From the NCBI GenBank assembly GCA_029212425.1, contig JARGNC010000003.1, positions 1 through 39,818 of the forward strand: a stretch of DNA of 39,818 bases, written 5' to 3'. How positions within the stretch are numbered: position 1 is the first letter of the stretch; each line of letters begins with the position of its first letter. Shown here piece after piece: positions 2,546 to 39,818 of this stretch. Source of the DNA: Phycisphaerales bacterium. Lineage in GTDB: Bacteria; Planctomycetota; Phycisphaerae; Phycisphaerales; UBA1924. The position numbers were made by a program, and so were the translations under genes. The notes beneath the pieces are model-generated. The model ran no database searches, was not told the DNA's origin, and worked only from the letters and a program-made list of their open reading frames with translations.

Positions 2546-2675
2546 CGATCTACACAACACGGATTGTTTCCCCATTCGATGGTGCTTTTTTGCTCTTTCC
2601 ACAGGGACATCCTGAAGCCAACTCGTGAATTATTCGATCCTTCTGATGTACCAGTCCAACATCAGGAGATTTGCT

Positions 2676-3812
2676 GTGCGCGTTTTGGTCGTTGATGATT
2701 CTGCTTTCATGCGGAAAATGCTCCGAGAGATGATCCAGTCGGATCCATCGCTTGAGGTAATTGACTCAGCGCGCGATGGCGCAGAAGCGGTTGAGAAAGC
2801 ACTGAAACTCAAACCAGACCTCATCACCATGGATATTGAGATGCCTCGAATGAACGGCATCGAGGCGCTAAGAAAAATCCTTGCACAATGCGAGACCACC
2901 CCACCCGCAATCCTGATGTGCTCCTCCTTGACAGTTGACGGGAGTGTCGAAGCACTCAAGGCACTTGAACTGGGCGCATCTGACTTCATCGCAAAGGACC
3001 CACAAGCGGGCGGGATGCAGAGTTTGGGGTTTAAAACCCAACTCCTGAGCAAGCTCCGCTCGATTGGTGGACATCGCCGACGCGTTGCCAGCGGATTCAT
3101 TCCAATGCCGATGATGACGAACACCACTCGCGAGAACCAATCTCGCGCAAGCGATCAGGTCGCATTGAACAATCAGTTTGTGCCTGATCAGGTTGATGCG
3201 ATTGTCATTGGTGCGTCGACCGGTGGCCCCGCTGTTCTTGAAAGCATCCTCGCGGATCTTCCTGAATCACTCCCAATCCCGATCTTGGTTGCTCAGCACA
3301 TGCCGAAGCTGTTTACGGAATCATTCGCGAATCGGCTTCATGGATTCTGCGGATGCGGCGCCATGCTCGCGACGCATGGAACGACACTGCATGCCCCGAA
3401 GGTGTATATCGCGGAGGGCGGATCGCACCTCAAACTCACACGCATTGCGGGTAAAAAAATCATCGCAAGAACCATCGAGCATATTGATGGATTGTCATAC
3501 AAGCCCTCTGTGGATTTGCTATTCACTTCAGCAGCGGAACTGTTTGGACCGCGCGTACTCGCGATCCAACTGACCGGCATGGGTGAAGACGGAGCAATCG
3601 GCGCGAACGCGATCCGATCGAAGGGTGGCGCGGTGATTGCGCAAGACTCAAATTCGTGTGTGGTTTATGGCATGCCGCGAGCGGTTGTGGAAAATGGTTC
3701 CGCAAACGCGATTATGACGCCTTCGGAAATCAAAGCTGTGATCCAGAGTGTCGTGATAACTGACCAAATGGGTGATTCCATCCAATCTGAAAATCCACGA
3801 AAGAGTGCATAA
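2676..3812 (+). CDS. cheB: Chemotaxis response regulator protein-glutamate methylesterase CheB
   Basis: The receiver domain reads VRVLVVDDSAFMRKML...DLITMDIEMPRMNG. The C-terminal methylesterase part has AIVIGASTGGP, VAQHMP and GMGEDGA motifs. I prefer the GTG start at 2676, preceded by AGGAG at 2664-2668, over the track's upstream GTG at 2625. It is in the same frame. Confidence 0.9.
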   Translation: MRVLVVDDSAFMRKMLREMIQSDPSLEVIDSARDGAEAVEKALKLKPDLITMDIEMPRMNGIEALRKILAQCETTPPAILMCSSLTVDGSVEALKALELGASDFIAKDPQAGGMQSLGFKTQLLSKLRSIGGHRRRVASGFIPMPMMTNTTRENQSRASDQVALNNQFVPDQVDAIVIGASTGGPAVLESILADLPESLPIPILVAQHMPKLFTESFANRLHGFCGCGAMLATHGTTLHAPKVYIAEGGSHLKLTRIAGKKIIARTIEHIDGLSYKPSVDLLFTSAAELFGPRVLAIQLTGMGEDGAIGANAIRSKGGAVIAQDSNSCVVYGMPRAVVENGSANAIMTPSEIKAVIQSVVITDQMGDSIQSENPRKSA

Positions 3813-3901
3813 CTGCTGGACTTTTGGTATACGGCTTACTTTGCCCCCACTGTTAGACGATACCACTGCCGGACGCTCACCGAGATAGATGAGGAGGCAG
3901 T

Positions 3902-4426
3902 ATGTCAGTATCGAGTTCGGACATCGAAAAGAAGCAGCAATACGCAGGAACCAGCGACAGCGATCCGCTGCGCTTGGTCAGCTTCAATGTTGGACAAGAA
4001 CGATTCGCTGTTGATATTCTGCGAGTCCAAGAGATCAACAGGATGATGTCGTTGACACAGGTGCCACAGAGTCCTCCCGGCGTCTGCGGGATTATCAATC
4101 TTCGCGGACGGATCGTCCCTGTGCTCGATCTCAGAACCCGATTCGGTATTTCGGTCGCTTCGGAAACACACGAGAGCTCACGCATCATTGTTGTTGAAGT
4201 CAAAGGCACCACCGTTGGTTTCATTGTTGATGCTGTCCATGAGGTCCTTCAGATTGATCAGGGGATTGTCGAGCCAATGCCTTCGACTTCATCTACTGCT
4301 GATTCGAGTTACATCTTGGGTGTTGCAAAGCTCGAGAGCGCGTTGCTGATTTTGCTTGATCTTGATCAGCTGTTCACCAACGAATCGCTCCAGTCGATGA
4401 ACTCCGTCAACCGTGCTGCTGCCTAA
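3902..4426 (+). CDS. cheW: Chemotaxis coupling protein CheW
   Basis: 174 aa. The core LVSFNVGQERFAVDILRVQEINRM...PGVCGIINLRGRIVPVLDLRTRFG...IIVVEV...VGFIVDAV.EVL is typical of CheW. A GAGGAGG RBS precedes the ATG. Confidence 0.9.
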   Translation: MSVSSSDIEKKQQYAGTSDSDPLRLVSFNVGQERFAVDILRVQEINRMMSLTQVPQSPPGVCGIINLRGRIVPVLDLRTRFGISVASETHESSRIIVVEVKGTTVGFIVDAVHEVLQIDQGIVEPMPSTSSTADSSYILGVAKLESALLILLDLDQLFTNESLQSMNSVNRAAA

Positions 4427-4449
4427 ACCAAAGAATCAGGAGATTTCGC

Positions 4450-5316
4450 GTGTCGATTACAGTAACAAAGATTCCGATGTCTAGCGAGCAGTTCACACGG
4501 CTTGCTCAGATTATCTACGACCGTTCCGGCATCCACTTTCCTGAACCCAAGAAGTACATCTTGGAATCGAGATTGTCGCATCGTCTCCAAGAACTGGAGA
4601 TCACGGACTTCGATCAGTACATCGCGTATCTCACGATGGGGCCGTACCAGATGGACGAGTTCCAGGAGATGTTCAATCGGATCACAATCAACGAAACAAG
4701 CTTTTTCCGGAATGAAGCACAGCTGAATGTCTTTGAACATCAGATCCTTCCCGAGATCCTTGAAGCTCGCGCCTCGACCAAACGACTTCGTATTTGGTCC
4801 GCGGCTTGTTCCACTGGGGAAGAGCCCTTCACGATTGCGATGCTGATTCATCGCACGCTCGGTATTCGACTCAACGATTGGCACATCGAAATTCTTGGTA
4901 CTGACATTTCCGAGAAAGCACTGAATGTTGCCAACTCCGGCACATACACCAGCTACGCGCTGCGTTCGACACCTCAACTGATGAAGTCGAAGTACTTCAC
5001 AGAAAGCGGACGCGAGTTCCAGCTCAGCGAAACCATTCGCTCGATGGTGAACTTTGAGCGTCACAACCTGAAGGATCGTCTTGCAGCGAAGCGGCATGGC
5101 GTGTGGGATGTGATCTTCTGCCGCAATGTGTTGATCTACTTTGATGATGAGATGAAAAAGGGTGTTGTCTCGATGTTCAACAACCAACTCGCTGATGACG
5201 GCACCCTGTTTATTGGGCATTCCGAACGGATCAAAGATCTGACCGACGATTTCGAACAACTCCCGATCCCACAAGGGTTCTGCTACAAGAAGTCCGGCAA
5301 GTCCAGCAACGCATAA
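4450..5316 (+). CDS. cheR: Chemotaxis protein methyltransferase CheR
   Basis: 288 aa. Motifs: INETSFFRN, RIWSAACSTGEEPFTIAM (SAM binding), DVIFCRNVLIYFD. It starts at GTG with an AGGAG RBS. Confidence 0.9.
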   Translation: MSITVTKIPMSSEQFTRLAQIIYDRSGIHFPEPKKYILESRLSHRLQELEITDFDQYIAYLTMGPYQMDEFQEMFNRITINETSFFRNEAQLNVFEHQILPEILEARASTKRLRIWSAACSTGEEPFTIAMLIHRTLGIRLNDWHIEILGTDISEKALNVANSGTYTSYALRSTPQLMKSKYFTESGREFQLSETIRSMVNFERHNLKDRLAAKRHGVWDVIFCRNVLIYFDDEMKKGVVSMFNNQLADDGTLFIGHSERIKDLTDDFEQLPIPQGFCYKKSGKSSNA

Positions 5317-5327
5317 GAGGAACACCG

Positions 5328-7685
5328 ATGTCGATACACGACTTTGATCCAGAAATTTTGCAAGACTTCATCACCGAATCTGGTGAACTGCTCGAACAGC
5401 TCGAGAGCGACCTTGTCGATCTTGAGTCCACGCCGCAAGAACAGGATTTGCTCAATCAAATTTTCAGAGCGTTGCACACCATCAAAGGCAGTGCCTCGTT
5501 CCTCGCGATGACCAACTTGGTGTCGATTGCTCATGTGTCCGAGAGCGCACTCAACTCAGCCCGCAACGGTGATGTCATTATTGGTTCAACGGAGATGGAC
5601 CTTCTGCTCGCGGCGGTTGATGTCCTCAAACTCCAGTTTTCTGAGATCACAGCAGGCAATCTGGATCTCACAGCAGCGGATCCGGCGCTGATCGATTCAT
5701 TGAGCGCGCTCGGAAACGGATTGCAATCACTTGATGCAGAAGATCCGGAAAACATTTCAGACTCGTCGAACGACACGACTGATCCGCAAGAGTGTGTGAT
5801 TTCATCCCCAACGCATCCAGATGGACGCGTTGAATCCCCTCTGGAACTTGATTCATCAAAACTCGATTTGATCGAGCACCTCACGGCAGACATCGAGGAA
5901 TCGCTCAGAGAAGTCTTTGAGAAGATTGACTTGCTCCGCGATGACTCCACCCGATCCAACGCGCTCAGCGAGCTTGCAAGTCTCACAGACGAGCTTGTCA
6001 AAACGATCGACTTCTTTGATCTTCCAGAGATGATGGAGATCATGAACGAACTCGAGCAGAGTATCCAGAACCTAGCAGTCTATGCGGATGCTCGATTCGA
6101 TCAGATTACCCCTCGCTTGCATGGTTTGTGTATGCTGCTTTCAGAGCAGACATCCAAACTGACCGAGCAAGTCCTTGTCTCTTGGGATACTACAGTCGTC
6201 GTCGATCGGCTCCGCAGCTGGATCTCCGGTGAAGCGGTTGATGGTCCGCCCCTTAGCGAAGACGCTGATGGGATCGAGGCGCTCCGCATGGATGGGATTT
6301 TCTTTGGTGATGCCGAGGATCAATCCGGTACTCAAGCAGACCCTGGAGCGGCGCAAGTCATCGAGGCGATTACCAGTGCCGACGAATGCTCGATTGAATC
6401 AACACTTGATACGACCTCTGCAGTTGCGTCAGGAAAGCGTGCTGAGATTGGGCAGATTGAGCAGACCATCCGCGTGGAAGTCGGGCGTCTCGAATCGCTG
6501 ATGAACTTGGTCGGAGAGCTTGTCCTCCAAAAAAACCGGATCGGTGCGCTCTCAGAAGACATCGAACGGACAAATCTCGACAGCAATCTCATCGAACAGA
6601 TGGAATCAACCGCAAGCACGCTCGATCGCGTGACAGGTGACATCCAACTCGCGGTGATGCGCACACGGATGCAGCCTTTGGTGAAGCTGTTCGGGAAATA
6701 TCCACGACTGATCCGTGATCTCGCAAACAAGACAGACAAGAAAATCAACCTCATCATCGAAGGTGCAGAAACCGAGGTGGACAAATCCGTCATTGAAGAA
6801 CTCGGCGACCCACTCGTGCACCTGCTCCGCAACTCGGGGGATCACGGGATCGAACTCCCTGCGGACCGAATCGCAACTGGTAAAGAAGAGACCGGCACCA
6901 TTCGGCTCATCGCGGGTCACGCGGGATCGCATGTCTGCGTTCAGATCATCGACGACGGCAAAGGCTTGGACCGAGATGTGATCGGCGCCAAAGCGATCGA
7001 ACGCGGATTGACGACCGCTGAACAGCTCAGCACGATGCCTGATGAAGAAGTCTTCCGATTCATTCTTGAAGCGGGGTTCTCGACTGCAGAGAAAGTATCC
7101 GATCTCTCAGGGCGCGGCGTTGGGATGGATGTGGTCCGGACCAACATCGAATCCAAACTCAAAGGCGAGCTCACCATCGAATCGGAGCGCGGCAAAGGGA
7201 CAACACTGACAATCACGATCCCGCTCACTGTCGCGATTATGCCCGCGATGATGATCGCGGTTGCGGATGAAGTCTTCGCAATCCCGCTGACCAACATCAC
7301 CGAGATCGTTCGGCCATCGGCGGATCAGCTCTCGTATCTGGGGAACGATCCAGTGATTCATCTCAGAGGCCAGGTCTATCCACTGATCAGTGCTCAAGAG
7401 ATGTTCGATGTCCCGCATCAATCGAGGGACGACGAGAACTTCGTCGTAGTTCTCAGTTACAACCAGCGTGTTGTGGGTCTGAAAGTGTCCTCAGTAATCG
7501 GACAGCAAGAGATCGTCATCAAACCGCTCGATGGAATCCAACGCGAAGGACCGATCTCTGGAGCGACGATCCGGAACGATGGATCCGTCAGTCTCATCAT
7601 GGACATCGCGAAACTGATGAGCACCACCAAGTCACACCCCAATCAAACCAACTCACTAGAACCTGTCGCCGCGAGCGGCCGCTGA
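5328..7685 (+). CDS. cheA: Chemotaxis histidine kinase CheA
   Basis: 785 aa. The Hpt/P1 domain carries FRALHTIKGSASF. The dimerisation/P3 region reads IRVEVGRLESLMNLVGELVL. HATPase boxes are HLLRNSGDHGIE, DDGKGLD and GRGVGMDVV. A C-terminal CheW-like P5 domain is present. Confidence 0.92.
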   Translation: MSIHDFDPEILQDFITESGELLEQLESDLVDLESTPQEQDLLNQIFRALHTIKGSASFLAMTNLVSIAHVSESALNSARNGDVIIGSTEMDLLLAAVDVLKLQFSEITAGNLDLTAADPALIDSLSALGNGLQSLDAEDPENISDSSNDTTDPQECVISSPTHPDGRVESPLELDSSKLDLIEHLTADIEESLREVFEKIDLLRDDSTRSNALSELASLTDELVKTIDFFDLPEMMEIMNELEQSIQNLAVYADARFDQITPRLHGLCMLLSEQTSKLTEQVLVSWDTTVVVDRLRSWISGEAVDGPPLSEDADGIEALRMDGIFFGDAEDQSGTQADPGAAQVIEAITSADECSIESTLDTTSAVASGKRAEIGQIEQTIRVEVGRLESLMNLVGELVLQKNRIGALSEDIERTNLDSNLIEQMESTASTLDRVTGDIQLAVMRTRMQPLVKLFGKYPRLIRDLANKTDKKINLIIEGAETEVDKSVIEELGDPLVHLLRNSGDHGIELPADRIATGKEETGTIRLIAGHAGSHVCVQIIDDGKGLDRDVIGAKAIERGLTTAEQLSTMPDEEVFRFILEAGFSTAEKVSDLSGRGVGMDVVRTNIESKLKGELTIESERGKGTTLTITIPLTVAIMPAMMIAVADEVFAIPLTNITEIVRPSADQLSYLGNDPVIHLRGQVYPLISAQEMFDVPHQSRDDENFVVVLSYNQRVVGLKVSSVIGQQEIVIKPLDGIQREGPISGATIRNDGSVSLIMDIAKLMSTTKSHPNQTNSLEPVAASGR

Positions 7686-7716
7686 AAGCTCAGCGTTTCA
7701 CACCAAGGAGTCTCGT

Positions 7717-8196
7717 ATGGACGCCAATATGATCACACCGTTTGTGAACTCAATTCAGAATGTATTCTCGACCATGTTCCAACTCCCTGTCGAGATCGGT
7801 GATCCGCGGATCAAGTCTGATCGGAAAGCGACGCACGATGTCTCTGGGATCATCGGTGTTTCGGGTGAAATGGTCGGCACGATCGTGCTTTCCATGCCTT
7901 CCGCAGCTGCTCAGTCCATCGTGACACTGTTTACCGGAACCGAGTTCGCGGTCGAATCTGATGACTTTGCTGATGCAGTCGGAGAACTGGTCAACATGAT
8001 TTCCGGGAATGCAAAAGCAGAGTTCCAACGCAAGGGTGTCTCGATCACTTGCCCATCTGTTGTGATCGGAGAGAACCACACCATCGCGGTTCAGTCCGGG
8101 ACCCCATGCGTATTGATCCCCTGCACAACCGATTGTGGGGAAGTTGTGCTTGAAGTAGCTATCCGCGAAGCAGAGGTCGAAGCCGCTGCTGCGTAA
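7717..8196 (+). CDS. cheX: CheX/CheC-family CheY-P phosphatase (single-motif, CheX-like)
   Basis: 159 aa. The N-terminus is INPFVNS-like (ITPFVNSIQNVFSTMF). There is a single D-x3-E-x2-N motif (DAVGELVNMISGNAK). It sits between cheA and cheY. Confidence 0.72.
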   Translation: MDANMITPFVNSIQNVFSTMFQLPVEIGDPRIKSDRKATHDVSGIIGVSGEMVGTIVLSMPSAAAQSIVTLFTGTEFAVESDDFADAVGELVNMISGNAKAEFQRKGVSITCPSVVIGENHTIAVQSGTPCVLIPCTTDCGEVVLEVAIREAEVEAAAA

Positions 8197-8642: not shown

Positions 8643-10352
8643 ATGGAACGCGGCGAACATGACATTGATCACCTGCTCAAACTGAGCACTGATTCGTCGA
8701 ACATTGAGGGAACTCTCATCTGGGAGCCGAGCGAATCGGTAAGCGGGATTTCCTCACTCGCACTGCAAGGGTATCTTGCGGGTCGGAATGTACGAGACTC
8801 AGCGATTGATTCCGATGCACTGGAGACTTTCAGCAAAGCGATCCACGCTGAGCCGCTCGTAGCCCATGAGTTGGTGGTTGCGAGAGGAACTCCACCGATC
8901 CATGGCGACAGCGCCACCTACACCATCGATCCCTGCATCGCGGCACAAATCGAACGAATCTCTGCTCGCGCAGATGCGATCAAAGCCGGGAATATCACGA
9001 GGTCGATGATTGAACAGACCCCGGATGATGGAACAGATGATCCAGAATGCGGTCACACGGATGATGCAACCGAACCGTCCGAACTGCCGGAAACTGATTC
9101 AGATGAATCGGGCACTTCGCATTACGACCAGATGGGGTTCGTTGTTGTCCAGCGCGGAGACACCATCGCACACAAATCTGAACGCTCCGAGGGAGTCGAT
9201 GGGTGCGACATATTCGGGAAAACCATCCCCGCGCACGAGGGTAAACTCAACGAGGGCTTTCTTGATGAATCGATTTTCGTTTCCCCTGATGGCGTGTGCA
9301 CAGCACTCATCTCAGGCGTGCTGACCGCAACCGATACCAGTATCTCAATCTCCAATCACCTCTCCATTCACGGCGATGTTGATTTCACGACAGGAAGAAT
9401 CACCTTCCCGGGTAGCGTTTCAGTCAAAGGTTCAGTACGCGACCGTTTCTTTGTGCACGCACTCAAAGATATCGAGATCGACGGGCTCGTCGAAGCCGCG
9501 GATCTTCAATCCGACCAAAGCATCACGCTCCATAGAGGCATGGCCGGAAAAGACATTGGACAGACGAACGCAGAACAGAACCTGACCGCAGGGTATCTCG
9601 AATCCGTCATCGGCACGATCAAAGGCAATGCGGCCGTCAACAGCGAAATCACAAACTGCACGCTCATCATCCGCGGCGAACTCCATGCAGATTCCGCAGC
9701 GCTACGCGGCGGTGCAGTTGAAGTGAGCAAAACCGCTCGGATCGGCTCGATCGGTTCCGTACAAGGTGTCAAAACCGAAGTCCGTATCGGCACGCTACCT
9801 GATGTCGAGAAGCTCATCAGAAATGCTGACGAGTTGCTCAAGCAGATCGAGCGGAAGATCGAAATCGAGACATCCAAGAAAGAACGGATGGACAAAGCCA
9901 TCACCAAACCGACGCCTCAGCAGATCGAAGAACTGATGGGGCTGCAGTTCGAGATCGACGAGCTCCAATCACGCAAAAATGACCTCGATACATCACGCGA
10001 TATTCTTCTGAACCTGCTCTCGATCCACACCCAAGCCAAGCTTGAGATCACCAAAGCAATCTACGCGAAAACAGTCCTGTACTTCCCAGGATACCGGTGC
10101 GAGTTCTCAAATGACCTCATCGGCGAATCTGTGATTACGATCGGTTCGAACAGCAAACCCACACTCAACTACCTTGGCAAATCGATGCCACTGAGTGAGC
10201 GAGCTCGCATCATCCCGGACGATCGGATCCTCAAAGCTGAGTTCATCGATCCTGATCTTGAGGTGATAGAGCAGATCGAACCGGTCAGCCAAGACGGACA
10301 GGGCCCTCTGGACGACATGGATGATGGATCCGCGCTGCCCAATGCCGCGTAG
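8643..10352 (+). CDS. DUF342/FapA (flagellar assembly protein A)-family protein
   Basis: 569 aa. It has the DUF342-type signature VVQRGDTIAHK...GVDGCDIFGKTIPAHEGK. This is followed by repetitive beta-helix-like G-x-I/V segments, a coiled coil (EKLIRNADELLKQIERKIEIE...EIDELQSRKNDLD) and a terminal AKLEITKAIYAKTVLYFPG block. The assignment is from remembered family features, not a search. Confidence 0.65.
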   Translation: MERGEHDIDHLLKLSTDSSNIEGTLIWEPSESVSGISSLALQGYLAGRNVRDSAIDSDALETFSKAIHAEPLVAHELVVARGTPPIHGDSATYTIDPCIAAQIERISARADAIKAGNITRSMIEQTPDDGTDDPECGHTDDATEPSELPETDSDESGTSHYDQMGFVVVQRGDTIAHKSERSEGVDGCDIFGKTIPAHEGKLNEGFLDESIFVSPDGVCTALISGVLTATDTSISISNHLSIHGDVDFTTGRITFPGSVSVKGSVRDRFFVHALKDIEIDGLVEAADLQSDQSITLHRGMAGKDIGQTNAEQNLTAGYLESVIGTIKGNAAVNSEITNCTLIIRGELHADSAALRGGAVEVSKTARIGSIGSVQGVKTEVRIGTLPDVEKLIRNADELLKQIERKIEIETSKKERMDKAITKPTPQQIEELMGLQFEIDELQSRKNDLDTSRDILLNLLSIHTQAKLEITKAIYAKTVLYFPGYRCEFSNDLIGESVITIGSNSKPTLNYLGKSMPLSERARIIPDDRILKAEFIDPDLEVIEQIEPVSQDGQGPLDDMDDGSALPNAA

Positions 10353-10433
10353 TCCACAAGCGACCAGAACCGTCCGGGGTGTTTCGTGGTATATGCTCCT
10401 AGAAGCCATGCAATGATTGGCTCGAGGAAACAA

Positions 10434-11720
10434 ATGCCCGCACGCAGACCAAACATCTATTCCAAACCACCGCGATTCCTAAGCGTACTCGCGCTGTGCG
10501 GGTGTTCAATCATGGGATTGGGTGCGTCACAACTCCCGCAAGAGCAGGATCAGTCCACCCAAGATACTGAACAACAACAGCATTCCAAAGCTGCGCAAGC
10601 GTCAACCGAAGCGAGTGAGTGCACCATCACCCTTGATTCGGGTCGATCCATCACAGGCATCCTGATGCAATCCGATGAAGAAAGCATCGTCCTGCGGATC
10701 AATGGGATCGACACGACCTACCGACGAGAACGGATCGCATCCGTCAAGCTGCTCCCTCCGGTCTCAGAGAGATTTCGCAAACTCCGGGAATCCATCCCAG
10801 ACAACGACATCGAATCCCGGCTCATCCTCGTCGACTGGCTCCGAGATCGACGAGCGTATCAACTCGCGATTGATGAGCTTGATTCCATCCTCGAACTTCA
10901 TCCAGCACATCCACAAGCAACCATCCTCAAGACTTGGCTCGAACAACATCTCAAGCTCACCATGTCCAGCAACAAGCGGACACAACGCGCAACAACCCGC
11001 CGTCCCGCCGCTGAGCCGAAGCATTCTGTCCCGCTGCTAACTCCAGAGCAGATCAACCTGATCCGTGTCTACGAGTTGGATCTTGCTGATCCTCCACGAT
11101 TCCGGATCGAGGATTCAACGATCCGCACCCTGATGTCCCAGCAGCCAGATGCGTTCCCAGTCAATGAGCAGCAACGCGAAGCGATCCTCAAGAGCTCCGA
11201 TCTTGACAAACTCAAACTCCTTTTCCGGAATCGCGCTCGAAACCTGTATCACGAAGTCCAGGTGGATGAGGACCCTGAATCCTTTAAGGTGTTCAAGAAG
11301 CGCATCGCGGGACGAACAGGATGGTTGCTCAACTCCTGCGCAACGGTGAGATGTCATGGAGGCGAAGCCGCGGGTGAGTTTCGTCTCGTCAACCACGACC
11401 CGAACTCACCAGAATCGTTGTACACAAACTTCGTGACCATAGACAGATACAAACTCAAAGACGGGACTCCGCTGATCAACTACATCGACCCCGAACGATC
11501 CCCGTTGGTTCAGATGGGCATGGTCCGATCCAGATCCCTCTATCCACATCCGGATGTTGATCCGGTCGAGTTTGGACGCGACTGGAAACCGGTCTTCCGG
11601 ACCTCCACATCGACCAACTTCAAACGTGCGATCGATTGGATCCGCTCGCTCTATACCCCAAGACCAGATTACGGGTTTCAATACCCCCCAGCGTCCTCAA
11701 ATCCAGAATCCAATCCATAA
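10434..11720 (+). CDS. Hypothetical exported protein with a TPR-like segment and a C-terminal CX4CH motif
   Basis: The start was chosen at the ATG preceded by GAGGA. The track's GTG at 10386 is in frame. The signal-like N-terminus is MPARRPNIYSKPPRFLSVLALCGCSIMGLGA. The motif NSCATVRCHGG lies at 11337-11357. Confidence 0.55.
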   Translation: MPARRPNIYSKPPRFLSVLALCGCSIMGLGASQLPQEQDQSTQDTEQQQHSKAAQASTEASECTITLDSGRSITGILMQSDEESIVLRINGIDTTYRRERIASVKLLPPVSERFRKLRESIPDNDIESRLILVDWLRDRRAYQLAIDELDSILELHPAHPQATILKTWLEQHLKLTMSSNKRTQRATTRRPAAEPKHSVPLLTPEQINLIRVYELDLADPPRFRIEDSTIRTLMSQQPDAFPVNEQQREAILKSSDLDKLKLLFRNRARNLYHEVQVDEDPESFKVFKKRIAGRTGWLLNSCATVRCHGGEAAGEFRLVNHDPNSPESLYTNFVTIDRYKLKDGTPLINYIDPERSPLVQMGMVRSRSLYPHPDVDPVEFGRDWKPVFRTSTSTNFKRAIDWIRSLYTPRPDYGFQYPPASSNPESNP

Positions 11721-11834
11721 TGACCAAGATGCACGATCAGCCCCGGCGGTCGCTTGGCGCGCTACGATAGGAACAAATGCCCCTTGACGAGCCGGCAAGC
11801 CCGGTTGGTGAGACTGAGTAAGGATTTCACTCCG

Positions 11835-13277
11835 ATGACAGAACCGACACAACGATTCAACACCACACCGCGCATGACCTGGACCACCCGATCGCTGCTG
11901 CTTGCCGCTGCTGCGACTGCGATGATGGTCAGCGGCTGCTCCAAGAGCAACGACGCAAAGGACGCGGTGAACGAAGCCAGCCTTGAGTTCAGCAAGATCT
12001 CCGTCGGCGATCCAACCCTCTCAAGCACCATCGCGAGCACTTCTTACACCAACGCGGGCAACGCAACCTCTGAGTATGCAGGAAACGAGAAACCGTTCGG
12101 CGAAGCCGCTGCAGTCTCGCTCGCACTCTCGAAACTCGGGATGGCAACACTCGCGACAGGCGATTCCACCGACGCAGAGACTGAAGCGATGCACCGTTCA
12201 CGCATCATCCGCGGGCACCTCAGCGAATGGATCGCAATGAACGCGGTCGCAAAGGCATCCACCAACTTTGATCCCTCGCAAGACAAACGAGCACTGCAAG
12301 AACTCATCGAGCTCCGCAAAGCGGATGTGAAGGAATACTCCGAGTTGTTCGAGTCGCTGCAAGATGAGATCAAGCAACTCCAGTCGCAGATCGACGAGCT
12401 TGATGCAAAATCGGCGACCGAACGCAATGAGAGTGCGAAATACGAGCTTCAGATGACCAGCGTATCGGCAACCAAAGCCGCCCAACTCGCTGAGCGCGTC
12501 CGCGAGCACACACTCCGCGGCGATTCCTACGAACTCGAATCCATCCGGATTCAGGGACGAGTCGGCCAACTGCTCCCAGGCGCGCACGAGGTGGAACTCC
12601 AGGTCAAGAAAGCAATGGACCAGATCGAGCTGCTCGAACTCTCCATTGATGAACTCGACCAGCGTGTCCGTGATTCCAAGACCGATTCCGCTCAAGCACG
12701 CGCCAATGCTGAAGCCGCGAAAGCGAAGCTTTCCGAGTTGGTCCGCGATCTTGAATCGTACAGGTCTGACACAGTGATTCCTGCGAGCGACAAGGTCATC
12801 TCACTGATCCGTCAATCGCTCAGCGCCTCACGAAACGCGTCGAGTACAGCAAAAGCAAGCGGCGCGATCGCGAAAGCATCCGCTCAAGAGCATCTCGCTC
12901 GCGCGTTTGCTCAACAGGCGCGTGGAGAAGCGGAAATGGTTTCGCTCTACCAATCCATTATCAGCTCAGGAATCAGCGGCGACTGGCAGTCCAAGCTCGA
13001 CTCCCATACCGAAGCATTCAGCAACCTCACCGAAGAGTCGAAGCAAGCGTTCCAGGACGCCGCGTCCGCGCTCCGCAGCGGTCGATTCCGTGGTGTTGAA
13101 GGCGAGAGCATCGAAGCCGCCGCGATCCGCTTGGATCGTCTCGGCGGGATTGAGCCGGAACCTGAATACTCTGAAGAGAGCGAGTACACCGACTCGGAGT
13201 ACGACGAAGAGTACGATGAGAGCATGGACGACGAGAGCTTCGAAGACGAATACGACGACGAAGACAGCGACGGCTAA
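11835..13277 (+). CDS. Hypothetical coiled-coil lipoprotein with a highly acidic Tyr-rich C-terminal tail
   Basis: Starts at ATG 11835; the track's TTG at 11754 is in frame. The signal plus lipobox reads LLLAAAATAMMVSGC. A long heptad-like region follows (KQLQSQIDELDAKSATERNESAKYELQM...). The tail is EYSEESEYTDSEYDEEYDESMDDESFEDEYDDEDSDG. Confidence 0.6.
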   Translation: MTEPTQRFNTTPRMTWTTRSLLLAAAATAMMVSGCSKSNDAKDAVNEASLEFSKISVGDPTLSSTIASTSYTNAGNATSEYAGNEKPFGEAAAVSLALSKLGMATLATGDSTDAETEAMHRSRIIRGHLSEWIAMNAVAKASTNFDPSQDKRALQELIELRKADVKEYSELFESLQDEIKQLQSQIDELDAKSATERNESAKYELQMTSVSATKAAQLAERVREHTLRGDSYELESIRIQGRVGQLLPGAHEVELQVKKAMDQIELLELSIDELDQRVRDSKTDSAQARANAEAAKAKLSELVRDLESYRSDTVIPASDKVISLIRQSLSASRNASSTAKASGAIAKASAQEHLARAFAQQARGEAEMVSLYQSIISSGISGDWQSKLDSHTEAFSNLTEESKQAFQDAASALRSGRFRGVEGESIEAAAIRLDRLGGIEPEPEYSEESEYTDSEYDEEYDESMDDESFEDEYDDEDSDG

Positions 13278-23074: not shown

Positions 23075-24124
23075 TTATCGAACGATGTCTCGGCCTTTGA
23101 TGCCGTCGCGCGTCGCCCAGAAGTACGCGGGATACTTTCCTGCTCCGAATCCATCGATGTTGAGCAAGCCCACTTCAAAGTAGTCTTTGTCCATGCCATA
23201 ATCTTCGAGCAGTGATCCGGGAATATCCCACACATCTGTTGGCTGAAACTCGCGTGCGACACGCGGGTTTTCGTCCCCTGCCAACTGACGAATTTCTTCG
23301 ATCTTTGCCGCGATCACGGAGCCGTCTGAAGTCAGGACCGCTGGTTGCGCTTTGGGATTGTTCCACTGCGGATGATGGTTCTCTTCGCCCATCGCGATGG
23401 AAGGCGCGGTCGGATCGATCGGGTGCGGGATACTCGCGGTCCGCTCATTCTGTGACCAATCAAACCGCTCCCAGATGATGACCTTGTTCGCGGGAAACGA
23501 GGTGTCAGAAATCTTGTTCCGCCGGACCATTGAAATTGGAGCACTGTTCCGCTGAGCCGCTGGGCGGTTTGTATCCTCGTAACGCTTTGGTGAGAACCAG
23601 AGGGTCGGCGAGAGAATATACGAAGAATCCCAGATCCCGGTATTGAGATTGAAGTTGTCGTTCTCGTTGAGGAAGTCTGCGAATCGCGTGATGATCGCTT
23701 TGTCAGAGGGCGCGAACTGGATTTCAGATCCGTAGTCGCCCTCGTTGACCCATCCGCCGACGAGAGAGTACCAGTGGAACGCGTACATTTCAGAGTACCA
23801 TTGAGCTGGACCGGTGAACTCGTAAACGCCGTTGAGACCCGGCTTGCTGACGCGTGCCCACCCCCCTGCTGCTGGACCTCCGTTCCCGCCTGTGACTCGA
23901 CCAGCATCGAACGGATTGATGTAGCTGTCTTTGAAATCCCCAGCATACAGGAACTGGATCTGCCCCAATGATCGGAGATTGGCTTTGCTCTTGACCGCTT
24001 GTGCGGTGGCGCGAGCTTTACCCAACGCTGGGATCAAGATCCCCAGCAACAACGCGATGATCGCGATCACGACCAACAACTCAATCAGGGTAAACCCTTG
24101 CATCTTTCGACAGCGATTCCGCAT
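23075..24124 (-). CDS. DUF1559 domain protein with N-terminal prepilin-type cleavage/methylation leader
   Basis: MRNRCRKMQGFTLIELLVVIAIIALLLGILIPALGKAR is the classic planctomycete H-X9-DG/DUF1559 N-terminus. ATG 24124 is preceded by AAGGAG. The track's TTG start at 24139 lies within that RBS. Confidence 0.85.
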   Translation of the reverse strand: MRNRCRKMQGFTLIELLVVIAIIALLLGILIPALGKARATAQAVKSKANLRSLGQIQFLYAGDFKDSYINPFDAGRVTGGNGGPAAGGWARVSKPGLNGVYEFTGPAQWYSEMYAFHWYSLVGGWVNEGDYGSEIQFAPSDKAIITRFADFLNENDNFNLNTGIWDSSYILSPTLWFSPKRYEDTNRPAAQRNSAPISMVRRNKISDTSFPANKVIIWERFDWSQNERTASIPHPIDPTAPSIAMGEENHHPQWNNPKAQPAVLTSDGSVIAAKIEEIRQLAGDENPRVAREFQPTDVWDIPGSLLEDYGMDKDYFEVGLLNIDGFGAGKYPAYFWATRDGIKGRDIVR

Positions 24125-24344
24125 TCCACACTCCTTCAATCAACCCACACAATACCACAAATACACCCGAATTACACGGACTTTCCTCGCTTCAAGCAAT
24201 GAACTTGTTAGACAAGCGGTTCAAGTGCAGAGTGTTTCTGTATTATCGACACCGATTCCGGAATATCATCGGTCAGACCAAGAGTTTCCGCCGATAGATT
24301 CGTTAGATTCTTGATCACATCACCCGAACCACCGGACTCCCACT

Positions 24345-37298: not shown

Positions 37299-37371
<73 letters not shown>

Positions 37372-37467
37372 CTTCCCAATCGCACACCCGATTTCCAACC
37401 AGAATCACGGATTTTCACGATTCGCGTTCGGGATTTGATCGTGCCTGTTCCAAGTGAGAGACCCACC

Positions 37468-37734
37468 ATGGCAAGCGGACGCGAGTTCTCAAGCACACAG
37501 CGGAAGATCATCAACCGCTACTACGACAACCACGACACCATCCTCGCGACCCGTCTTGGGGAGATCGTGACGGACATCGCCCTCGCCGAGGACAACCTGA
37601 AAAAGCTCGATCGCCTCTGGATCCGCGCCGAGCAGGCACTCTCCAAGACCCAGCTCAAACCAGAATCATGGAAAAAAATCATCGCATGCCGCGATCCCAA
37701 AGCACTTGCGCGGCTCATATCCAAGTTGATGTGA
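37468..37734 (+). CDS. Small hypothetical protein (88 aa, helical, basic/acidic mix)
   Basis: ATG 37468 gives MASGREFSSTQRKIINRYYDNHDTILATRLGEIVTDIALAEDNLKKLDRLWIRAEQAL.... The composition is good, but I recognise no motif. Confidence 0.5.
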   Translation: MASGREFSSTQRKIINRYYDNHDTILATRLGEIVTDIALAEDNLKKLDRLWIRAEQALSKTQLKPESWKKIIACRDPKALARLISKLM

Positions 37735-37741
37735 TCCCAGC

Positions 37742-37770
37742 TTGCTCTGGGAACACTCCTCTGGTACAGT
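37742..37770 (+). promoter_or_regulatory. Putative promoter of the riboswitch-led transcript
   Basis: TTGCTC (37742-37747), a 17-nt spacer, then TACAGT (37765-37770). The -10 element ends 6 nt before the first base of riboswitch P1 (37777). Confidence 0.35.
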
Positions 37771-37776
37771 CCACGC

Positions 37777-37974
37777 GTTGAAGGTGCCGAGGATTCTTGA
37801 AAACCTCGGTGAATAGGGAAGTGTGGTGAGATTCCACCGCGGACGCGCCGCCGTAACGGGCAACGACGACCGCTCAGCTGTTTCAAAGCAGCAACCACTG
37901 GCACGATCTTTCGATGGATCCTGTGTCGGGAAGGTGAGCGGATCTGAGCCCCGAGCCGGAAGACCTGCCTCAAC
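37777..37974 (+). promoter_or_regulatory. Cobalamin (B12) riboswitch aptamer
   Basis: P1 is gttgaagg/cctcaac. The P2 hairpin is gccgagg...cctcggt. Conserved blocks appear in canonical order: AATAGGGAAG, GGTGAGATTCCAC, GCGGACGCGCCGCCGTAACGG, the B12-box-like AACCACTGG, CGGGAAGG, GAGCCGGAAGACCTGCC. Confidence 0.9.
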
Positions 37975-38151
37975 AGATGTGTCGGACCTCGCGAAATGGG
38001 TCGGCGGATCGGTTGTGCGCCCCTCCCCGCTCTCAGCCCCCGCTTTCAACCCCGCAAGCTCGACTCAAATGTTCCGGGGAGTGTCCTGCGCGAAACAGGG
38101 CAACACATCACACGCCCACATTCTTTCATGGGCAGAGAGTCGAGTATTGTC

Positions 38152-38994
38152 ATGAATCTTTCTATTGGTTTCAACGGAGCTGTATACGCAGGAACGCTGA
38201 TCACAGCCCTCTCAACCGCCGCGAATGCCTCACCGTTCGCATCATCCGTTCTCGGATACGACGCGGGGTCCAACGCCGCCGCGGGGTACACCGACGCATC
38301 AACCGCACTTGGGAGCGCCGAGCGATTCACAGGTGAAGGCGTCTTCCCCTCCGGAGTCACCCCGTTCAATCCCGCGTTTGGCGCAGACGAAATCGTCTCC
38401 GTCGGTTCGGGTGGGTACCTCTCCCTCGGATTCAACACCGCGATCACCAACGACGCATCACACGCGTTTGGTGTCGATCTCATTGTCTTCTCCAACGCTG
38501 GATTCGCAGATGCGACATGGACCGATTCGGATCCAAACAACGACGGGACTGGGAACACAGGAGCAAACCCATTCATATTCGGCGCAGGTGGTGCCGCGAC
38601 GATTCAAGTTTCTCAAAACGGAACTGACTGGATCACCGCAACAACCACCACCCTCGACCTCTTCCCAACGCTTGGATATTCAGACTTCGTCGATGCGACT
38701 CCGGCTTCGCACGGATTGATCGAGTCGGACTTCACGAAAGCACTGGATCCAACACTGACCGCTGCGGACCTTGCGAACATGTCCTTTGACGACCTCCGCA
38801 CATTCTACAACGGCTCAGGTGGCGGCGTCGGCATCGACATCGCTTCGACCGGACTCACCTCCGCAAGCTTCGTCCGTTTCCTCAATGAGTCAGGCGAAGC
38901 GTTCGAGATCGACGCTGTCGCGGTCGTCCCAACGCCGAGCACCCTGATCGCGCTGAGTCTCGCTGGACTTGCAACAACGCGCCGTCGTCGCTAA
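38152..38994 (+). CDS. Secreted protein of unknown function with a C-terminal PEP-CTERM sorting signal
   Basis: The signal peptide is MNLSIGFNGAVYAGTLITALSTAANA|SP. The C-terminus VPTPSTLIALSLAGLATTRRRR is a PEP-like motif plus TM helix plus Arg cluster. In-frame alternative starts exist at 38128 (ATG) and 37996 (ATG, track start). Confidence 0.8.
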   Translation: MNLSIGFNGAVYAGTLITALSTAANASPFASSVLGYDAGSNAAAGYTDASTALGSAERFTGEGVFPSGVTPFNPAFGADEIVSVGSGGYLSLGFNTAITNDASHAFGVDLIVFSNAGFADATWTDSDPNNDGTGNTGANPFIFGAGGAATIQVSQNGTDWITATTTTLDLFPTLGYSDFVDATPASHGLIESDFTKALDPTLTAADLANMSFDDLRTFYNGSGGGVGIDIASTGLTSASFVRFLNESGEAFEIDAVAVVPTPSTLIALSLAGLATTRRRR

Positions 38995-39044
38995 ACAACT
39001 CCATGCTTCGCCCAACGGTTCATTGGGGACCGGGCGAGCACCGC

Positions 39045-39075
39045 GTCGCCGCGCCCAAACGCGCGGCGACGATTT
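39045..39075 (+). terminator. GC-rich hairpin, possible weak terminator after the PEP-CTERM gene
   Basis: A perfect 10-bp stem, gtcgccgcgc (39045-39054) with gcgcggcgac (39061-39070), has the loop ccaaac. Only gaTTTa follows, so termination efficiency is uncertain. Confidence 0.35.
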
Positions 39076-39095
39076 ACATCTCCGAGAGAAACCCT

Positions 39096-39818
39096 GTGCA
39101 GAACCGATCTCACATCCTGCGATTCACCCCACTGCTCATCACCGCAGCGGTCTTTGCGCAGCCGATCCGCTATCAGCACGGTCCGATCAACACATCCCAC
39201 TCCCCCTGGACACAACTTGGCGGCGATTCTTCCCACACCCATACCCCGCGCGTGATCGGGTCGCACCTCTCAACGCCTGACTGGACAAGCACCGGAGATG
39301 GATCGATCACGCTGAGCTTCACACCTCAAGCGGGGGTCGTTGCAGATGACCAGCGTGTGTATGCCGTGGGTCAGGATCAGGGGTTTGTGCGCCACCTTTC
39401 CGCGTTCGATCAAGATTCCGGAGAACTTGCATGGGCAACCGAAATCCCCTTCGCGATCCTCGATTCGTGGTCCACGCCAACGCTCGATCTGCAGAACAAC
39501 ACGATCATCGCCGCGAGTGGGTTCTCGATGGTCGCACTCGACCGATTCACAGGAGATCAAGTCTGGTTGACGCCTATGGATCGTCCCATCGTCAATGCGT
39601 CGCCTTGCATCACCGACGACCTCGGTTCGTCCAACCGACTCTTCATCACGGACTACACATTCGGTTCCGCAACCAACGGCTCGCTCATCTGCATCAACAC
39701 AGATCCCAACACGCAGGACAACCCCTTCGATCCCGGCGAAATCCTCTGGAGCACACAACTCCCAGGAAACTGCTCCGGGAACACCCCTGCATACAGCGAT
39801 GGGGTTGTTTATGTCTCG
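39096..39818 (+). CDS. Secreted PQQ-like / BamB-like beta-propeller repeat protein; the 3' end lies outside the window
   Basis: The frame is open to the window end, which is why it is not in the ORF track. GTG 39096 gives the signal peptide MQNRSHILRFTPLLITAAVFAQP. An in-frame ATG at 39003 is also possible. Repeats of the type VYAVGQDQGFVRHLSAFDQDSGELAWA, IIAASGFSMVALDRFTGDQVW and GVVYVS resemble PQQ-like propeller blades. Confidence 0.65.
   Translation, partial: MQNRSHILRFTPLLITAAVFAQPIRYQHGPINTSHSPWTQLGGDSSHTHTPRVIGSHLSTPDWTSTGDGSITLSFTPQAGVVADDQRVYAVGQDQGFVRHLSAFDQDSGELAWATEIPFAILDSWSTPTLDLQNNTIIAASGFSMVALDRFTGDQVWLTPMDRPIVNASPCITDDLGSSNRLFITDYTFGSATNGSLICINTDPNTQDNPFDPGEILWSTQLPGNCSGNTPAYSDGVVYVS

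Follow-up and report, generated by a model that had tools for sequence, protein, structure and literature searches.

A cobalamin riboswitch in a Phycisphaerales planctomycete precedes a large family of exported proteins related to the BtuH B12-binding domain

Vitamin B12 (cobalamin) is a traded micronutrient in the ocean, and we know of no account of how the Planctomycetota obtain it. In this study, a 39,818-nt stretch of DNA from Phycisphaerales bacterium (GCA_029212425.1, contig JARGNC010000003.1, positions 1-39,818, forward strand; hereafter the window) was analyzed. Near its 3' end a cobalamin riboswitch stands in front of gene 1, which encodes an exported protein without a name (protein 1), and of gene 2, a beta-propeller gene that is cut by the end of the window. 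This arrangement raises the question of what a B12-sensing RNA controls in such an organism. A first-pass annotation, made from the sequence alone, had proposed that the two genes form a B12-repressed surface module for scavenging corrinoids. Here the riboswitch, the protein family, the leader and the operon were investigated by comparative analysis, and the locus is best read as a B12-repressed operon that probably serves surface corrinoid capture in a marine Phycisphaerales planctomycete, with corrinoid binding itself being a prediction.

The window riboswitch is a genuine, standard member of RF00174. A cmscan search of Rfam gave a full-length match on the forward strand of 83.4 bits (E = 3e-19), compared with a gathering score of 31.5 bits, and this match covers model positions 1-189 of 189. 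Its span (37764-37986) is slightly wider than the 37777-37974 claimed in the first-pass annotation, and the six conserved blocks listed there are all present in the canonical order.

The riboswitch is accompanied by relatives of gene 1 far beyond this genome. A word-indexed search returned 649 homologues of protein 1, all unnamed or annotated as 'hypothetical' and mostly derived from Phycisphaerales metagenome-assembled genomes, and the family comprised 743 clusters at 50% identity in an exhaustive search. A total of 80 loci were sampled from species-representative genomes, ranging from 84% to 41% protein identity and including other Planctomycetota and Isosphaeraceae. RF00174 was found on the same strand and directly upstream of the homologue in all 18 loci scanned with Rfam and in two loci encoding fusion proteins (20/20). 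A profile built from 16 Rfam-verified riboswitch matches was run with nhmmer on 86 sources, and exactly one riboswitch was detected in 83 of them, in each case on the forward strand and immediately 5' of the family gene; the three sources that were missed have less than 235 nt of upstream sequence on their contigs. The suggestion that homologues might recurrently be preceded by RF00174 was thus borne out by both searches. The association spans 41-95% protein identity and neighbourhoods that differ by lineage, including the fab/plsX cluster in the window lineage and rpoBC in L158 and L159, and in all of them the riboswitch accompanies the family gene. Wherever upstream sequence exists, the link between the riboswitch and the gene 1 family is obligate.

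The nature of the family is indicated by its relationship to a known B12-binding domain. The best sequence match of the family profile in the PDB was marginal (8blw_B, residues 435-498, E = 0.009). The same chain was the top PDB match in Foldseek for an AlphaFold2 model of protein 1 (E = 1.7e-5, probability 1.00) and the sole match at E <= 1e-3. This model, in which the signal and anchor helices flank a beta-sandwich, was computed from a 69-sequence alignment with a mean predicted local distance difference test score (pLDDT) of 92.4 and a predicted template modelling score (pTM) of 0.88, while an input of 24 close sequences had given an unusable model (pLDDT 54.4). The chain 8blw_B is BtuG1 of Bacteroides thetaiotaomicron, and its C-terminal ~250 residues form a BtuH domain homologous to BtuH2 (7BIZ) (PMC10404256). 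BtuH2 is a surface lipoprotein that binds B12 at picomolar affinity and recognises the corrin ring and the nucleotide loop, not the lower ligand (PMC8941943), and BtuH loci are riboswitch-controlled (PMC8941943, PMC10404256).

Profile comparisons carried this relationship further. An H-domain profile was aligned from intact BtuG1 genes recovered from gut metagenomes, and it matches both 8blw_B (390-662) and 7biz_A (217-492). In hhalign the family matched the H-domain at 96.6% (E = 5.8e-10, 115 columns) and a broadened profile with BtuH2-type sequences at 96.7% (score 75.2); in global mode the value against the broadened profile was 97.2%, with the C-terminal strands in register. Among the null controls, 60 column-shuffled family alignments gave at most 1.5% and a score of at most 21.8, the reversed family alignment gave 0.4%, and unrelated pairs (the family against the BtuG propeller, and the window propeller against the H-domain) gave 0.2-2.0%. 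The family hidden Markov model (HMM) matched 137 of 142 BtuH sequences at E <= 0.01 and none of the shuffled BtuH sequences (maximum 2.6 bits), and conversely the BtuH HMM matched 126 of 269 family sequences (best 35.8 bits). On these sequence-based grounds, we conclude that the gene 1 family is distantly homologous to the BtuH B12-binding domain. The earlier statement that the regulated gene belongs to no known B12 gene class must therefore be divided: the relation to BtuH contradicts it, and it holds in so far as no Pfam or NCBIfam model and no database name reveals that relation.

The B12 contacts of BtuH2 reported in PMC8941943 were mapped onto the family, with 7BIZ numbering taken as the chain index plus 100. 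Family residue N115, which is kept in 62 of 69 members, aligns with BtuH2 Asn399, a contact of the nucleotide-loop phosphate, and BtuH2 Gln333 aligns beside the variable family positions N41/A42. DUF4465 was considered as the identity of BtuH and rejected, since the literature equates DUF4465 with BtuJ and the BtuH domain has no Pfam model; PF14717 (DUF4465) matched 0 of 69 family members at E <= 0.1. A search with a 63-aa BtuG1 fragment returned only three short database proteins, which are pieces of 80-97 aa. On the gut Bacteroides contigs that carry these pieces (L086 and L087) the genes of the btu locus are broken into many short open reading frames (ORFs), probably as a result of frameshift-rich long-read assemblies.

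The 280-aa signal-peptide ORF proposed for gene 1 is real. Protein 1 begins with a predicted signal peptide of the signal-peptidase-I type (MNLSIGFNGAVYAGTLITALSTAANA, followed by SP), with cleavage after ANA and before SP. An upstream in-frame ATG at 37996 would give a protein of 332 aa and would run through the expression platform of the riboswitch; because of the lengths of the homologues, mostly 275-282 aa, and their aligned N-termini, the start at 38152 is favoured. Some relatives carry a stop codon inside the upstream extension. Public calls for two close relatives, P0001 (332 aa) and P0109 (330 aa), are over-extended at the 5' end, and the annotation of this family suffers from gene calls that in some cases systematically extend the gene 5' through the expression platform. 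The PEP-CTERM anchor assigned in the first-pass annotation found support at the level of the family and not of the single protein: PF07589 (PEP-CTERM) was matched by 38 of 69 members (best E = 6e-7) and a VP[AT]P - hydrophobic - RRRR arrangement is conserved in the family alignment, whereas the C-terminus of the window protein alone (VPTPSTLIALSLAGLATTRRRR) scored 14.1 bits against TIGR02595, below the cutoff of 16. No exosortase (EpsH) gene was found in the 39.8-kb window. Apart from the PEP-CTERM motif, none of the 69 members gave a Pfam match, and scans with Pfam and NCBIfam detected no metal-binding motif or known cobalt-transporter domain.

The leader of gene 1 is also conserved. The promoter-like TTGCTC-N17-TACAGT agrees with the sigma-70 consensus at 7 of 12 positions and is absent from the consensus-scan list. 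As a match to consensus the proposed promoter is therefore weak, but it is phylogenetically supported because a TTGC/TTGA-N17/18-TAnnnT pair is kept at a constant offset from the aptamer in relatives whose flanks are diverged and unrelated. An 88-aa ORF (37468-37734, forward strand) without Pfam or NCBIfam match lies between tRNA-Lys(CUU) (37299-37372) and this promoter, and its position is repeated in close relatives (L002 9473-9739, L003 9315-9581 and L157 9292-9558).

No ribosome-binding-site-sequestering or platform helix had been recognised in the first-pass annotation. A conserved platform nevertheless exists, and its helices emerged from comparative analysis of 26 leaders, whereas minimum free energy (MFE) folding and a terminator scan gave nothing significant. 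A P13-like stem directly after P1 covaries, with seven double-sided changes at one pair, and the CGCG on the 5' side of its loop is invariant in 26/26 sequences and matches the invariant CGCG of L5. Over the non-redundant loci, CGCG occurs within 60 nt after the aptamer in 61/71 and in L5 in 63/71. Further downstream, an outer helix (CGGCGG/CCGC) shows 3-6 compensatory changes per pair in the leader alignment (RNAalifold), with the covariants CGGCGG/CCGCC, TGGTGG/CCACCA, GACGG/CCGTC and CAGCGG/CCGCTG, and encloses a hairpin with a CCUCCCC loop. It is accompanied by a GGGGAG box, ~70 nt 5' of the start codon and invariant among the compared leaders, and by a second covarying hairpin (GUCCUG-CGCGAAA-CAGGGC). 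The C-rich and GGGGAG boxes were found in only about 30-38 of the 71 loci and are thus considered clade-specific. Judged from these covariations, the predicted platform fits the known L5-L13 kissing-loop mode of cobalamin riboswitches, and expression could finally be turned off either by sequestering the initiation region or by terminating transcription through Rho.

The two leader hairpins at 37985-38002 and 38084-38101 share one loop, CGCGAAA. Since CGCG is self-complementary, alternative kissing pairs could form among L5 and the loops of these two hairpins; the CGCG of the second loop is not universal, and L015, L018, L029 and L032 have other loops on the conserved stem.

Gene 1 is followed by two GC-rich hairpins. 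The stronger one, placed at 39045-39070 in the first-pass annotation, lies at ~39046-39071 (GTCGCCGCGC-CCAAAC-GCGCGGCGAC, followed by a weak T-run) and is absent from the terminator-scan list. Paired hairpins of different sequences were seen at the same position in 12/12 relatives inspected, and partial termination or 3'-end protection is their likeliest role. As had been described, a second signal-peptide protein built as a PQQ-like propeller follows, starting with GTG at 39096 and matching PF13360 (PQQ_2) with E = 1.4e-11; its full-length orthologues in L002-L004, L158 and L159 have 511-571 aa.

The module had been described as a gene pair, and the relatives correct this by adding a third conserved partner, located beyond the end of the window. 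Their operon order is family gene, PQQ_2 propeller and a ~270-aa prepilin-type protein with an N-terminal methylation motif, a DUF1559/SBP_bac_10 domain and a GspG-like N-terminus. Partners were counted in the 80 loci by same-strand chaining and by profile searches of stop-to-stop translations. The propeller stands directly 3' of the family gene in about 46-51 of these loci, and 58/80 have the pseudopilin-like gene no more than 4.5 kb away on the same strand. In about ten distant loci this gene comes directly after the family gene. With only ~1.1 such genes in each 16-kb locus, this link is regarded as specific. In relatives, the ends of genes 2 and 3 share 4 nt (L002 12630). Furthermore, the homologue P0261 is a single polypeptide composed of a signal peptide, a PQQ_2 propeller, the family domain, an extra module and a C-terminal anchor, in which the domain order is that of BtuG1; a riboswitch, cut by the contig end, lies upstream of it. 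P0139 and P0129 were rejected as fusions since their internal PEP-CTERM signals indicate probable read-through calls, leaving P0261 as the sole accepted case. In 12/80 loci a protein of 1300-1500 aa without Pfam or NCBIfam match is encoded on the same strand after the pseudopilin-like gene (e.g. L035:11860-16338, also L037, L038, L047 and L048), and it may be a further component of the module. The features of the window locus are listed in Table 1.

Table 1. Coordinates of the riboswitch, its leader and the operon genes in the window
Feature	Position	Strand	Description
Promoter-like TTGCTC-N17-TACAGT	37742..37770	+	adjoins the 5' side of the riboswitch
Cobalamin riboswitch aptamer	37764..37986	+	RF00174; classical form with peripheral extension; L5 = GCGG-ACGCG-CCGC
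P13-like hairpin	37985..38002	+	GACCU / CGCGAAAU / GGGUC; directly after P1; CGCG loop can kiss L5 CGCG
Rest of expression platform	38003..38151	+	outer helix, CCUCCCC-loop hairpin, GGGGAG, second hairpin, purine-rich GGGCAGAGAG before start
Gene 1, 280 aa	38152..38994	+	signal peptide 1-26, BtuH-like jelly-roll ~27-258, PEP-CTERM-type sorting signal 259-280
Intergenic region	38995..39095	+	two GC-rich hairpins; fold -46.2 kcal/mol
Gene 2, 5' part, cut at window end	39096..39818	+	GTG start, signal peptide, PQQ_2/BamB-type beta-propeller

Taken together, these features suggest how the operon may work. At low intracellular cobalamin the aptamer would be empty and the operon expressed. Protein 1 would be displayed on the outer surface and bind corrinoids through its BtuH-like domain, and the propeller would act with it as BtuG acts with BtuH, the two being fused in one homologue as in BtuG1. 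The pseudopilin-like DUF1559 protein may pass the cargo inward or help to assemble the system. When cobalamin is plentiful, ligand binding would stabilise the L5-L13 (CGCG:CGCG) kissing loop and the downstream helices would turn the operon off; as an intrinsic terminator is lacking, they would most likely do so at translation initiation or through Rho. Owing to the hairpins after gene 1, protein 1 would probably be produced in larger amounts than the proteins encoded downstream. In this form the proposal of a B12-repressed surface scavenging module appears to stand in its universal riboswitch link and in the BtuH homology of gene 1, and the propeller analogy behind it may be retained as an architectural one only. 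A more specific version can be offered tentatively, namely a BtuB-independent route: a BtuH-like binder, anchored by exosortase, and a PQQ propeller would capture corrinoids and hand them over to the prepilin-anchored DUF1559 (SBP_bac_10) protein, which would be either a component of a pseudopilus or a periplasmic binding protein tethered to the membrane.

Several observations weigh against a corrinoid-capture operon of this kind. With respect to the domain, the global template modelling score (TM-score) of the Foldseek match to 8blw_B is low (0.34), 7BIZ (BtuH2) is missing from the top 50 matches, and generic CBM32/discoidin jelly-rolls come next at E ~3e-3. Recognisable conservation of the BtuH domain is confined to its N-terminal half and its last strands; the segment that carries BtuH2 His476, Tyr510 and Trp511 is replaced by a shorter, different family sequence, and BtuH2 Trp577 has no clear family counterpart, so that only part of the BtuH2 pocket appears to be conserved in the gene 1 family. 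Because of these limits of the homology (the partial pocket, the TM-score and the CBM32 matches), we infer corrinoid binding by protein 1 and do not assert it. With respect to the partners, the propeller has no specific similarity to the BtuG (DUF5074) propellers (hhalign 3.7%); the analogy with BtuG drawn in the first-pass annotation survives in architecture, through the BtuG1 order of the P0261 fusion, and fails as homology, the window propeller being PQQ_2/BamB-type. The homologues had also been thought possible neighbours of btuB/TonB receptors or corrinoid genes, and no TonB receptor, btuCDF or cob gene was found within 10 kb in six Pfam-annotated contexts. With respect to the OFF mechanism, the terminator scan found no intrinsic terminator on the forward strand of the leader, in agreement with the first-pass annotation, and the MFE of the leader is no better than that of shuffled sequence (z = -0.19). 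Finally, some of the transcripts may end at the conserved hairpins after gene 1.

Protein 1 might instead be a surface lectin or adhesin, a jelly-roll resembling a carbohydrate-binding module (CBM) and binding glycans in place of corrinoids, with B12 starvation inducing attachment to B12 producers or particles. The CBM32/discoidin modules that follow BtuG1 in Foldseek (E from 3e-3 to 2e-2) and the fact that most BtuH2 pocket residues are not identifiable in the family would agree with such a role, as would the classical tie of PEP-CTERM proteins to exopolysaccharide and biofilm (PMC1569441). We consider this unlikely, since the 69 members contain no Pfam CBM or F5/8 match, hhalign places the family with BtuH at 96.7% with clean controls, and an obligate riboswitch link across a family of 743 clusters would be expected of a gene acting directly in B12 supply. 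Slightly less likely still is that the module captures another ligand, for instance cobalt, cobinamide or a further incomplete corrinoid. B12 riboswitch regulons do include cobalt and corrinoid-precursor transporters. Moreover, the gene 1 pocket differs from that of BtuH2, and BtuH2 itself reads the corrin ring and nucleotide loop and leaves the lower ligand unread (PMC8941943). Against a different ligand stand the lack of any metal-binding motif or known cobalt-transporter domain in the scans and residue N115, whose equivalent Asn399 touches the nucleotide-loop phosphate that cobinamide and cobalt lack.

The extent of the regulated unit can also be questioned. The riboswitch might control gene 1 alone, with the GC hairpins terminating transcription and the propeller and pseudopilin being functionally unrelated neighbours. 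Strong hairpins do follow gene 1 in the window and in 12/12 relatives, about a third of the loci have no propeller, and in L157 the family gene is solitary after the riboswitch, without a propeller or a same-strand pseudopilin. The weak T-run after the hairpin and the absence of this site from the terminator-scan list argue in the other direction, and the three genes move together into different neighbourhoods. In addition, the pseudopilin-like gene is operon-specific (~1.1 per locus), the propeller and the family domain are fused in P0261, and genes 2 and 3 overlap by 4 nt in L002. Control of gene 1 alone is considered unlikely, and the B12-repressed operon for corrinoid capture is the reading that we carry into the comparison with known systems.

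BtuH (BtuH1/BtuH2 and the H-domain of BtuG1; 7BIZ, 8BLW) and the gene 1 family have in common a homologous globular domain (hhalign 96.7-97.2%, reciprocal HMM matches), an upstream cobalamin riboswitch, an associated beta-propeller that is fused in one homologue and a conserved equivalent of the Asn399 phosphate contact. BtuH is surface-exposed, and protein 1 is predicted to be exported with a sorting signal. The two differ in that the family shows only ~17-23% identity to BtuH over the aligned columns and has a shorter domain in which the middle segment with His476/Tyr510/Trp511 is replaced. BtuH is a lipoprotein, whereas protein 1 has a signal peptide and a PEP-CTERM signal and lacks PKD domains, and its operon has no btuB. 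Gene 1 thus falls outside the operational definition of BtuH, which is a surface lipoprotein in a btuB-containing cobamide transport locus. The family also occurs in Planctomycetota, whereas BtuH homologues are predominantly from Bacteroidota, together with three gut Firmicutes (September 2026 review, PMC13616437).

The BtuG and BtuB-BtuG systems of Bacteroides resemble the operon in that a B12 riboswitch controls a secreted beta-propeller encoded beside a BtuH-type domain or fused to it; BtuG is of the DUF5074/YncE type, however, in contrast to the PQQ_2/BamB-type propeller of the window, and the window operon has no nearby TonB-dependent partner. BtuJ/DUF4465 proteins are, like protein 1, exported beta-jelly-roll proteins, and they have been proposed or shown to scavenge B12 in marine and Planctomycetes-Verrucomicrobia-Chlamydiae (PVC) lineages, including the Phycisphaerae species Mucisphaera calidilacus (bioRxiv 10.1101/2025.08.21.671476). 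The gene 1 family differs from them in lacking the conserved GTPAY/NTPAY loop motif and any PF14717 match, and no BtuJ structure was among the Foldseek matches listed for the protein 1 model. The riboswitch itself resembles L5-L13 kissing-loop riboswitches such as that of E. coli btuB in its full aptamer, B12 box, peripheral extension and a hairpin directly 3' of P1 with a loop complementary to L5. It differs in that the start codon lies ~150 nt beyond P13, with extra helices and the CCUCCCC/GGGGAG boxes between, and the genes it regulates are not in known B12 regulon lists.

Several neighbouring genes were recorded as well. Two convergent genes lie directly downstream of the operon on the reverse strand (L002 13447-15069, L003 13308-14933 and L157 11109-12709) and encode one protein of ~270 aa, in which a weak N_methyl prepilin motif is seen, and one of ~260-270 aa; this pair persists in L157, which is without a propeller and a same-strand pseudopilin. 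A nitroreductase and His_Phos_1 pair ~4 kb downstream in relatives was tried as bluB/cobC and rejected, since NCBIfam gave 218 bits for an NfsA-like nitroreductase, 39 bits for BluB against a cutoff of 150 and no CobC match. In several lineages a nitroreductase that resembles NfsA (218 bits, slightly below the NF008033 cutoff of 223) and is not BluB recurs within ~10 kb of the operon, often with PAS/GerE regulators (L002 15186-15923, L157 12859-13590, L158 3012-3821 and L159 951-1721). Housekeeping functions fill the rest of the window, among them FapA, fab and glycosyltransferase genes, an Opp-type ABC transporter and a che operon. A complete chemotaxis cluster (cheB, cheW, cheR, cheA and cheX) occupies 2625-8196 on the forward strand and is followed by a FapA-domain protein (8643-10352) and by ORFs of 444 and 507 aa without Pfam match (10386-13277). 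Unlinked to the riboswitch operon, the reverse strand at 23075-24139 encodes another protein, of 353 aa, whose one Pfam domain is a prepilin-type N_methyl motif.

Full-text searches found no literature that links PEP-CTERM or DUF1559 proteins to B12 riboswitches in Planctomycetes, and the results presented here point to an undescribed B12-scavenging system. A large unannotated family, with 743 clusters at 50% identity, is tied throughout to the cobalamin riboswitch, and through it the BtuH B12-binding fold would be extended to a further phylum, where both its anchor and its partners differ. In marine metagenomes the family could serve as a marker of B12 scavenging. One specific DUF1559 pseudopilin-like protein and a PQQ-type propeller are likewise tied to B12 status, and the BtuB-independent route, if true, would give the very large planctomycetal DUF1559 family its first member with an assigned function.

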